The notes below the pieces were generated by a model. It saw only the letters and a program-made list of their open reading frames with translations, was not told the DNA's origin and did no database searches. 64,000 nucleotides of DNA from Shigella phage CWP003: sequence record OL856099; one strand, given 5' to 3'. The position numbers were made by a program, and so were the translations under genes. This document shows positions 1 through 5,059 of this stretch, one piece after another (the first letter of the stretch is position 1; each line of letters begins with the position of its first letter).

Positions 1-1295
1 ACCAGTTTGACATCAACTTGTCAGACTTCGACAGCATCATCATGAACCAGTACCAGCTTGTGGCCGCAATCGCAAAAGTTCCGTCGACCAAACTGCTTGG
101 GACTTCGCCAAAAGGCTTTAACGCCACTGGTGAATTCGAGATGGTCAGCTATCACGAAGAGTTGGAAACGTGCCAGCAGCATGACCTGACAAAAATTCTC
201 GACCGCCATTACAAAATCCTTCTCAAATCAGAAGGGGTGAATGTCGATGTTAAGGTTGCATGGGAACCAGTTGGCTCACTTACTGCTACTCAACTTGCAG
301 AAATCAATGATAAGCGAGCCAACACTGGCAAAACTCTTATTGATGCTGGCGTCATTTCTCCTGATGAAGAGCGCGACCGCATCAAAGACGACAAAAACAG
401 CGGCTACAACCGTCTGCCGGAAGACGCAGCAGAAGAAACCCCAGGGATGTCTCCAGAGAATATGGCATTGCTTGGCAAGTCTGCTGGTGAAGTCCTGCAA
501 GGTAAGGCCGATATTGAACAGGCGAAAGCTGATGTCGTTAAGATGGGCGGCCAGTTCTATAGCGAAACAGGTATTATGCCAGAGGGTGCCGCGCGTGGTG
601 AGTTGGCGGAAAACCCTGACAAAGCGCCTGTCGAAATCAACATGGACGATACCGATGATGAATCAAGCCATCAGGTTGATGTCCTAACGCAGTTGAAAGA
701 AGGGCTGGAGGGTATTGCGGATTACTACCTGAAAGAAGGTCAGGATGTGGATTTTGACCCTCAAAAAGATTCACGGTCGGTGCAACCGTCTACCCTTCCA
801 AGCGTTAAAGGACACGTCGTCAACTTACGCCACAACGTGGGTAAAATGGACGCAGCATCATTACCTAAGATGAAGTTGCACGGAATGATTCTTGGCATTG
901 AGAATCCGCGAAACAGCATTCGTAGAGGAAACAGCCTTGACGGTGAATGGGCCGTGAAGATGCCGCACCACTACGGATTCATCAAGGGCACCAAGGGCGC
1001 AGACGGTGATGAAGTCGACTGTTTTGTGGGTCCAAATCTTAAGTCGCCGAAAGTCTTTATCGTGAACCAAAACGATAACTACTCTGGCGAGTTTGATGAA
1101 CACAAGTGTATGCTTGGATTCGATTCAGCAGAAGAAGCGAAAGAAGCTTATCAAGCATCATTTGGTAACGGTTGGAACGGATTCGACTCAATCCACGAAT
1201 TAGATGTGAACTCATTCAAGGAGTGGTTGAAGGGTGATTGCTCTCAAGCATACGGAGCACTCAATAATCCTACTAATTCACCGAAGCAAGGTTGA
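1..1295 (+). CDS. portal-like head protein, 5' end outside window, with C-terminal inorganic-pyrophosphatase-like region
   Basis: Frame is open from window edge (no stop upstream of nt 18) to TGA 1293-1295; sits directly upstream of MuF-like gene; C-terminal part contains YGFIKGTKGADGDEVDCFVG, matching the family I pyrophosphatase D-x-D-x-x-D signature. Confidence 0.45.
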   Translation, partial: QFDINLSDFDSIIMNQYQLVAAIAKVPSTKLLGTSPKGFNATGEFEMVSYHEELETCQQHDLTKILDRHYKILLKSEGVNVDVKVAWEPVGSLTATQLAEINDKRANTGKTLIDAGVISPDEERDRIKDDKNSGYNRLPEDAAEETPGMSPENMALLGKSAGEVLQGKADIEQAKADVVKMGGQFYSETGIMPEGAARGELAENPDKAPVEINMDDTDDESSHQVDVLTQLKEGLEGIADYYLKEGQDVDFDPQKDSRSVQPSTLPSVKGHVVNLRHNVGKMDAASLPKMKLHGMILGIENPRNSIRRGNSLDGEWAVKMPHHYGFIKGTKGADGDEVDCFVGPNLKSPKVFIVNQNDNYSGEFDEHKCMLGFDSAEEAKEAYQASFGNGWNGFDSIHELDVNSFKEWLKGDCSQAYGALNNPTNSPKQG

Positions 1296-3617: not shown

Positions 3618-3646
3618 ACACAATACTTATTTGAGGGTGGATGCGA

Positions 3647-5059
3647 ATGCAAACGGCACGCGAAATTGACAAAAATGGATTCTTGACGATTGTGGGTTGT
3701 CCCATTTCGTCATTTGGCATTTTTGATTATTCTGCAGGTCAGGTTGGACTTGATGGTGATCCGAATCGCATCGTAAAAGTTTATCGCCCAGAGTCAGCGG
3801 TGAAAGACCCCGAAGCGATAGATTCATTCAAAAATATCCCTTTCATCGACAATCACGAAATGCTTTCTGGATTCGAAGGTGATGAGGATAACACAGCACC
3901 CGAAGAGTATGGCGTTGATGGCGTTCTAACTGGCAATGTTTATTATGACAAGCCATGGATGCGCGGCGACCTTAAAGTTTTTAGCCGTCGTCTGAAGAAA
4001 GCCATCGATTCTGGAAAGGTTGACTTGTCTTTGGGCTATGACTGTGAATTCATCATACAGTCTGGAGAGTTTGACGGGCAGCCGTATGAAGTGGTACAGA
4101 CAACTCTTCGCGGCAACCACATTGCTCTCGTGGACGTTGGTCGAGTACCAGGTGCACGGGTGCTGGATGGTCGTTGCTTTGACCATCTTTGTTTGACGAC
4201 TGTAACACCATCCAACGAGGATTTAGACATGCCAAAACCGTTAAAAGGTAAAGCGCGTGATAATGCTGTTGAACAGCTGAAATCACTGATCCCTGCGCTC
4301 GAACAATTTCTGAATGAAGAGAGCACCGAAGCTGCTCATCAGGACGAAGTTGAAGTGAAAGCAGAAGAGAAGGATTCAACCGAAGAACGTGAAGAAGTGA
4401 TGGTTGATCCAGAAGTTAAAGCAGAAGCTGAAGAGACTCCAGAAGGTGAAGAGAAGTTTGAAGTTGAATCTGAATCTCACGCTGGCGGCGAGCTTCCGCA
4501 ACTGATCAGCCAAATCGAAGCACTTATTGCAAAACTGAAAGGTGGCGCGGTAGGTGATGAAGAAGAAGTTGAAGCCGAAGTCAAAGACGAAGAAGTTGAA
4601 GTCAAGGCTGAAGATGTATCACCTTGCGACAAAGCTGAAGATGTGGTTAGCGGCCTGCAAAACAGCAACGTAAAGGGGGCTTCGGTCGAAAAAGATGACA
4701 AACCGACAAAAGCGGCGAAAGCGTCGCCAGGTCCAGCAAAAGGGGAACACTCAATGGCATCTGATTCAGCAGTTGCTGCTTTCTACGCTGATTCTGCTCG
4801 TAAGAATAGCCTCTACCAGCGCCTGTCTAAAGTTGTTGGTGCCTTTGATCATGCAACTATGGACTCCAAGTCCGTAGCGAAATATGGCGCTAAAAAGTTA
4901 GGCTTGAAGTGCGTTGATGGTGCTGAGTTTGACGTGGTGGATAATTATCTGCGCGGCGTTGAACACGGTCAAAAACAGCGTGTAGTCGCAAAACAAAAGG
5001 CCGCTGCGGATTCTGCAGCAACTGACGAAGCATTTGAAGCTTGGTTGAAAGGGGAATAA
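3647..5059 (+). CDS. scaffolding / prohead protease-like protein with acidic E/V/K-rich repeat region
   Basis: GAGGGTGG RBS 6 nt before ATG 3647 (alternative ATG 3641); long acidic low-complexity stretch typical of scaffolds; position before capsid gene. Confidence 0.5.
   Translation: MQTAREIDKNGFLTIVGCPISSFGIFDYSAGQVGLDGDPNRIVKVYRPESAVKDPEAIDSFKNIPFIDNHEMLSGFEGDEDNTAPEEYGVDGVLTGNVYYDKPWMRGDLKVFSRRLKKAIDSGKVDLSLGYDCEFIIQSGEFDGQPYEVVQTTLRGNHIALVDVGRVPGARVLDGRCFDHLCLTTVTPSNEDLDMPKPLKGKARDNAVEQLKSLIPALEQFLNEESTEAAHQDEVEVKAEEKDSTEEREEVMVDPEVKAEAEETPEGEEKFEVESESHAGGELPQLISQIEALIAKLKGGAVGDEEEVEAEVKDEEVEVKAEDVSPCDKAEDVVSGLQNSNVKGASVEKDDKPTKAAKASPGPAKGEHSMASDSAVAAFYADSARKNSLYQRLSKVVGAFDHATMDSKSVAKYGAKKLGLKCVDGAEFDVVDNYLRGVEHGQKQRVVAKQKAAADSAATDEAFEAWLKGE

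Follow-up and report, generated by a model that had tools for sequence, protein, structure and literature searches.

The DNA analyzed in this study is a 64,000-nucleotide stretch of Shigella phage CWP003 (sequence record OL856099), referred to as the window. It opens with the 3' end of a gene for a phage portal protein, and this protein carries at its C terminus a domain related to the inorganic pyrophosphatases (PPases), termed the InPase domain. The window is the nearly complete genome of a phage of the genus Wifcevirus; over the first 6 kb it shares 99.3% identity with Wifcevirus WFH and 97-99% with ECML-117, FEC19, vB_Eco4M-7, and others. Wifcevirus phages are myoviruses of Escherichia coli and distant kin of the Pseudomonas PB1-like phages. 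All features described here lie on the plus strand. The open reading frame (ORF) listing and its translation show an unbroken portal-InPase frame from nt 3 to the stop codon at nt 1293-1295, and the 3' end of the gene thus covers 430 codons plus the stop (nt 3-1295). The window start truncates the gene, the first codon in the window being codon 362. In phage WFH the full-length gene (gp021, annotated as 'minor head protein') has 791 codons, and the window ORF is identical to the C-terminal 430 residues of gp021 at 429 of 430 positions. The family PHROG 4660 ('minor head protein', profile length 765) models the entire portal-InPase fusion.

Portal core, linker, and InPase domain

The part of the ORF upstream of the InPase domain is a portal, as had been proposed in an earlier note made from the letters of this DNA alone. 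The Pfam family PF06381 (Phage_portal_3) matches the truncated window ORF with an E-value of 1e-26 and the full-length orthologue with an E-value of 3e-88 over profile positions 1-353 of 357. The gene also has its place beside the terminase and head genes, in the order terminase large subunit, two small ORFs, portal-InPase, MuF-like head morphogenesis protein, head fibre, DUF2213 prohead protease/scaffold, cement protein, and major capsid protein. The end of the portal core domain lies at nt 3-323 (profile positions 245-353 of 357). It is followed at nt 324-539 by a post-core segment including the C-terminal alpha-helical barrel, which was mapped by alignment to the portals of the Pseudomonas phages E217 and Pa193. 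Both have been solved by cryo-electron microscopy (cryo-EM) as dodecamers (PDB ID: 9B41 for Pa193; PMC10329688, PMC11456595), and the C-terminal barrel of E217 points into the head. The models cover residues 94/97-528 only, and residues 529-765 are described as having 'no discernible density', so that linker and InPase domain must be either flexible or missing from these maps. The pyrophosphatase domain goes unmentioned in both structure papers. The last modeled residue of Pa193, residue 528, corresponds in the alignment to WFH residue 540 and to window nt 537-539. Beyond it, an acidic and poorly conserved linker at nt 540-863, with a net charge of about -12 and 24% identity to Pa193, would act as a flexible tether. 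In most records the Wifcevirus and Pbunavirus portals are labeled 'minor head protein' or 'hypothetical protein'. The name 'portal' appears in very few orthologue records despite the structural confirmation (PDB ID: 9B41), and none of the listed orthologue records mentions a pyrophosphatase-like domain.

The InPase domain itself, a compact relative of family I inorganic pyrophosphatase with an oligonucleotide/oligosaccharide-binding (OB) fold, occupies nt 864-1265. The Pfam family PF18823 (InPase) matches nt 864-1232 with 158.5 bits against a gathering threshold of 26.8 (E-value 1e-46; profile positions 12-135 of 135); for the full-length orthologue the score is 157.1 bits. In the structure model, the confident fold extends from about nt 867 to about nt 1265, in good agreement with nt 870-1295 as first assigned, and leaves a C-terminal tail (nt 1266-1292) of low confidence, with a predicted local distance difference test (pLDDT) score below 50. 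The model contains a five-stranded OB-fold barrel, and its fold comparison matches PPases.

Sequence comparison with E. coli Ppa (from MG1655) bears out the similarity on which the domain had been recognized. The string HHYGFIKGTKGADGDEVDCFVGP, quoted in the earlier note, is located at nt 966-1034. The core MPHHYGFIKGTKGADGDEVDCFV aligns with Ppa without gaps over 23 residues at a BLOSUM62 score of 54, which none of 5000 domain shuffles reached, and an hhalign comparison of a 26-sequence profile with Ppa aligned the same stretch with an E-value of 2e-6. The spacing between the DxDxxD motif and the preceding YG is identical to that in Ppa, as had been claimed. The PROSITE signature of family I PPases, PS00387, reads D-[SGDN]-D-[PE]-[LIVMF]-D-[LIVMGAC], and DGDEVDC at nt 1002-1022 fits every position of it. 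A later segment, GFDSAEEAKEAYQASF, had likewise been compared with the C-terminal part of Ppa. It shares 8 of 16 positions with Ppa GWENAEAAKAEIVASF (score 36), the best ungapped 16-residue match between the two C-terminal parts, and 11 of 5000 shuffles reach this score. In the structure model the segment forms a strand and then a helix, as in Ppa. The C-terminal similarity thus appears real, although it is weaker evidence than the core.

A classical PPase has approximately 175 residues and the domain approximately 130, a difference of about 45. In its model an additional C-terminal beta-alpha unit of its own is formed by residues 115-142, numbered as described below. The model also has a hairpin at residues 27-40, in a domain described by Iyer et al. 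(2017) as hairpin-less. We read the InPase domain as an OB-fold derivative of family I inorganic pyrophosphatase that has been trimmed. It shares with E. coli Ppa the OB-fold barrel, the DxDxxD-YG spacing, equivalents of E20, Y55, D65, D67, D70, D102, and K104 and, probably, the C-terminal strand and helix. Family I PPase is a free hexameric housekeeping enzyme, whereas the InPase domain in the window is a tethered module of a virion protein.

Active-site conservation

Residues of the InPase domain are numbered within nt 840-1292 of the window. The predicted active-site residues, which fall within nt 900-1106, were assigned from conservation, profile alignments to the Helicobacter pylori and Mycobacterium tuberculosis PPases, hhalign, and strand positions in the model. 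They are Glu-21 (nt 900-902), corresponding to Ppa E20; Arg-28 (nt 921-923), an invariant arginine near Ppa K29; Tyr-45 (nt 972-974), corresponding to Y55; and the residues of the DxDxxD motif Asp-55 (nt 1002-1004), Asp-57 (nt 1008-1010), and Asp-60 (nt 1017-1019), corresponding to D65, D67, and D70. Further downstream, Asp-79 (nt 1074-1076) matches D97 within one position, Asp-86 and Glu-87 (nt 1095-1100) match E101 and D102, and Lys-89 (nt 1104-1106) matches K104. The register of the Asp-86/Glu-87 pair, with Glu-87 in the place of Ppa D102, is inferred. A global alignment (hhalign -glob) of 181 InPase domains with E. coli Ppa had near-zero confidence outside the core and was not used for residues after the DxDxxD motif.

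For conservation, 181 InPase domains from 177 proteins, collected by word-indexed and exhaustive representative searches, were aligned. Glu-21, Arg-28, Gly-30, Gly-35, Trp-37, Tyr-45, Gly-46, Asp-55, Asp-60, Gly-64, Gln-77, Asp-86, Glu-87, Lys-89, and Gly-93 are 95-100% conserved. Asp-57 is found in 90% of the domains, so that the acidic residues Asp-55, Asp-57, Asp-60, Asp-86, and Glu-87, all present in the window, are conserved to between 90 and 100%. Only about half of the family keeps Asp-79, the equivalent of D97. The window copy carries every conserved residue, including Asp-57 and Asp-79.

The domain nevertheless does not hold the full set of about 14 family I residues (E20, K29, E31, R43, Y51, Y55, D65, D67, D70, D97, D102, K104, Y141, and K142). 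No counterpart was found for E. coli R43, Y141, and K142 in the profile alignments, hhalign, or the 181-domain alignment, and equivalents of Ppa E31 and Y51 are not evident in the profile alignments or the 181-domain alignment. The expectation that some active-site residues would be missing from so short a domain was therefore correct. In the PPase mechanism, D65, D70, and D102 hold the two-metal center, with D67 proposed as the general base; the attacked phosphate is bound by Y55 and K104, and the leaving phosphate by R43, Y141, and K142. Judged by sequence, the residues kept in the InPase domain are exactly those of the metal center, the general base, and the lysine and tyrosine of the attacked phosphate, and the classical leaving-group site is missing. 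Between WFH (Wifcevirus) and Pa193 (Pbunavirus) the InPase domain is 61% identical, compared with 65% for the portal core and 24% for the linker. This pattern of conservation fits a working metal-dependent hydrolase with a substrate pocket unlike that of housekeeping PPases, and not a decayed remnant. The suggestion in the earlier note that the domain may be a degenerate binding fold is accordingly unlikely, given near-invariant metal ligands, lysine, and tyrosine and a degree of conservation that matches the portal core.

Distribution of the fusion and its presence in virions

The earlier note did not recognize a portal fusion of this kind as described. However, the fusion is already known: it was described in 2017, it has its own Pfam family, and it occurs in hundreds of phages. 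Iyer et al. (J Bacteriol 199:e00245-17; PMC5512222) defined, within the type I PPases, a monophyletic branch without the hairpin, the InPase domains of polyvalent phage proteins, and described the portal-InPase fusion, with BcepF1.124 (YP_001039808.1) as an example. BcepF1.124 is a full-length orthologue of the window protein with 53% identity over 800 residues, and its gene order is the same: terminase, portal-InPase, MuF, protease, and major head protein. The family and the architecture are shared, the window copy being the orthologue from Wifcevirus of E. coli and the other one from a Burkholderia phage; nothing substantive differs. Polyvalent proteins combine several effectors in one packaged chain, usually with a processing peptidase. 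The portal in the window has one effector and lacks a peptidase domain in the chain, and with this single effector domain it stands at the minimal end of what can be called polyvalent. Iyer et al. class the portal fusion as related context and not as a typical polyvalent protein (PMC5512222).

A colinear match to at least 80% of the 791-residue protein was found by tblastn in 350 of 50,697 phage records, which are nearly all Pbunavirus, Wifcevirus, and relatives. All genomes of Pbunavirus and Wifcevirus that were examined carry the fusion. PF06381 portals that are more distant (AP22-like, E177-like, and others) stop at approximately residue 510 and have no extension. The closest sequence in the Protein Data Bank is the Pa193 portal 9B41, with an E-value of 4e-48 over residues 628-763; gp19 of the Pbunavirus phages E217 and Pa193 is an orthologous full-length fusion, and its InPase region has no solved coordinates.

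Taken by itself, the InPase domain occurs in 474 phage records. A word-indexed protein search retrieved 28 short, mostly fragmentary proteins and no portals, whereas an exhaustive representative search revealed the family size and its architectures: 11,273 clusters at 50% identity in a representative library of 1.84 billion proteins, 9,364 of them at an E-value of 1e-10 or lower. Many of the InPase-bearing proteins in the library are 2,000-6,400 residues long, and portal fusions account for five among the 150 best representatives. Two of these five go on past the InPase domain. One portal homologue of 1191 residues (P0032) has an ADP-ribosyltransferase exoenzyme domain after the InPase domain (PF03496, E-value 3e-17), and another of 1106 residues (P0038) has a topoisomerase IB in this position (PF01028 and PF21338). 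Because these two proteins add different enzymes after InPase, the portal C terminus seems, from their domain order, to act as a carrier of interchangeable enzyme domains. A standalone InPase protein of 192 residues, gp087 of Vibrio phage YC (NC_048709.1; L004, 3851-4429), is annotated as 'minor head protein'. This label is probably an annotation artefact, the name having been carried over from PHROG 4660 via the InPase domain alone. The idea that Vibrio phage YC has the fusion split into two genes, a 'Rosetta stone' arrangement, was rejected, as a 632-residue protein near gp087 is not a portal by Pfam or PHROGs.

Published virion proteomics covers two close relatives of the window phage. Necel et al. 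2020 (PMC7048862; tables S2 and S3) list tryptic peptides from virions of ECML-117 and vB_Eco4M-7 purified on cesium chloride gradients. For ECML-117, the 791-residue protein is represented by 22 peptides, which span residues 12-789. Five distinct virion peptides lie inside the InPase domain (LHGMILGIENPR, MPHHYGFIK, GADGDEVDCFVGPNLK, VFIVNQNDNYSGEFDEHK, and CMLGFDSAEEAK), eight in the linker of ECML-117, and the peptide GDCSQAYGALNNPTNSPK from the tail was also detected, despite the pLDDT below 50 of this region. The InPase domain accounts for 215 of the 288 ECML-117 spectra, a count dominated by one peptide. Thus, the InPase module is physically in the particle preparation. Peptides from the N-terminal part of the portal (residues 12-32 and 45-53 of WFH gp021) were detected in Wifcevirus virions as well. 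In Pa193, the first 93 portal residues were reported to be neither detected by liquid chromatography-mass spectrometry nor visible in the map, and N-terminal processing may differ between Wifcevirus and Pbunavirus.

Two of the neighboring head genes are of interest here. The gene at nt 1297-2148 encodes a MuF / SPP1 gp7-like head morphogenesis protein (PF04233, E-value 4e-7; WFH annotation), a member of a portal-associated family of minor head proteins. The gene at nt 3641-5059 encodes a prohead maturation protease (DUF2213; PF09979, E-value 5e-35; PHROG 3778 'head maturation protease') fused to a scaffold-like region that is long, very acidic, and rich in Glu, Val, and Lys. Peptides of this protein are plentiful in purified virions, with 852 spectra for ECML-117 PI34_38, and because of this abundance we conclude that the protease/scaffold protein or fragments of it remain in the mature particle. 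The Pa193 paper suggested likewise that its gp24 stays in the mature particle. ARAGORN found no tRNA genes in the 64-kb window, and no Rfam family reached its gathering threshold in nt 1-64000.

Proposed role of the InPase domain

Because the catalytic center is kept and the leaving-group site is missing, we consider it probable, at roughly 60%, that the InPase domain is a virion-borne Mg2+-dependent phosphoanhydride hydrolase, which would act at or just after genome delivery on inorganic pyrophosphate (PPi) or a nucleotide-like pyrophosphate. In the common ancestor of the PB1-like clade, the portal C terminus would have gained an acidic linker of about 110 residues and the InPase domain of about 130 residues. 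Since the portal is a dodecamer with its C-terminal barrel pointing into the head, twelve InPase copies would be enclosed in each capsid at the portal vertex, and the portal fusion would serve in effect as a packaging signal. The module would then be released from the portal, for example by the DUF2213 prohead protease encoded at nt 3641-5059, which is a candidate for the releasing enzyme, and would enter the host. There it would serve, when the genome is delivered or immediately afterwards, as an effector brought along by the virion, in line with the proposal of Iyer et al. (PMC5512222). A free InPase produced by internal initiation at the ATG at nt 846 was also considered and rejected, the methionine not being conserved in the Pa193 orthologue.

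The internal head proteins of other phages follow the same concept, with an enzyme pre-loaded in the capsid for infection. One of them, the ADP-ribosyltransferase Alt of T4, is carried in the head and injected along with the DNA, and relatives of the window portal have an ADP-ribosyltransferase domain after InPase. The loading differs: T4 relies on the scaffold core and on a capsid-targeting sequence that can be cleaved off, whereas the system in the window would load by portal fusion, followed by a presumed release and ejection.

Several observations weigh against an enzyme that is delivered to the host and cleaves PPi. Delivery is the weakest link: a domain fused to the portal ring must be cut to leave the capsid, and a tether of about 110 residues is far too short for a tail of approximately 1300-1500 Å. 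The virion peptides cover the linker continuously, and on this evidence a tethered domain and a cleaved but retained one look the same. The residue assignments come from profile alignments and predicted secondary structure and not from a superposition of coordinates. The classical PPase family PF00719 matched below its threshold, with 18.0-21.2 bits against 23.5 and over a 25-residue stretch only. PPi may not be the substrate, because the leaving-group residues are without counterpart, and no enzyme assay of any PF18823 member was found in the literature searched.

Some of these observations would be expected if InPase never left the particle and served, still tethered to the portal, as an enzyme or sensor inside the capsid. 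It might then take part in assembly, packaging of the DNA, or retention of the genome: binding of the DNA end or of phosphates over the portal barrel is one example, activity in the infected cell ahead of procapsid closure another. In favor of this reading, the domain is built covalently into the portal dodecamer, and the peptides run from the N terminus through the linker to the C terminus with no gap that would suggest excision. Furthermore, the E217 barrel preceding the linker is folded only while the head holds DNA, according to the cryo-EM paper. The OB fold is in general a common nucleic-acid-binding fold, and the short linker points in the same direction. Yet packaging by the terminase yields ADP and inorganic phosphate rather than PPi, which leaves such an enzyme without an obvious substrate in the head, and most PF06381 portals, such as the AP22-like and E177-like ones, function without the extension. 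In addition, InPase is common in polyvalent proteins that have no portal, beside host-directed enzymes, and the ADP-ribosyltransferase and topoisomerase IB appended in portal homologues make sense only in the host cytoplasm. We therefore regard a permanently tethered InPase as unlikely, though it is the main rival of the preferred reading.

More doubtful is an anti-defence enzyme that would be delivered with the genome before gene expression and would hydrolyze a nucleotide-derived immune signal or alarmone instead of PPi. A kept catalytic center with a missing leaving-group site is what such an enzyme might look like. Iyer et al. connect related InPase domains with NUDIX, GNAT, and TmrB and propose a substrate that resembles a nucleotide (PMC5512222), and in polyvalent proteins InPase co-occurs with DarB-like and other counter-defence modules. 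This support is entirely circumstantial, however, and an unusual sensitivity of Wifcevirus phages to the defences resident in E. coli K-12 has been reported (PMC11990801), which does not point to a broad anti-defence arsenal. A remnant that has lost catalysis and persists only to help folding or to act as a spacer would agree with the reduced length, the PF00719 score, and the loss of the D97 equivalent in about half of the family. It is hardly compatible with acidic metal ligands, a lysine, and a tyrosine that are near-invariant in 181 diverse domains of a family of more than 11,000 clusters, with a window sequence that keeps all of them, including Asp-57 and Asp-79, or with an InPase domain conserved as well as the portal core, and we consider it highly improbable. 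The virion-borne hydrolase acting at genome delivery thus remains the preferred reading.

As a discovery, the fusion itself adds little, since it has a Pfam entry and a description from 2017 and is universal in the Pbunavirus and Wifcevirus genomes examined. The PB1-like group includes some of the Pseudomonas phages used most often in therapy. Its cryo-EM papers give no assignment for the C-terminal third of the portal, and the published virion proteomics contains the InPase domain. A bolder version, which we put forward as a long shot, is that the portal-tethered InPase domains are not pyrophosphatases: they would be released by the prohead protease and co-injected with the DNA, and, ahead of any phage gene expression, they would hydrolyze an alarm or immune signal derived from a nucleotide, or else an alarmone, for example (p)ppGpp. 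If this is true, portal fusion would be a general way of loading exactly twelve swappable effectors, InPase, ADP-ribosyltransferase, or topoisomerase IB, into the virions of PB1-like phages.
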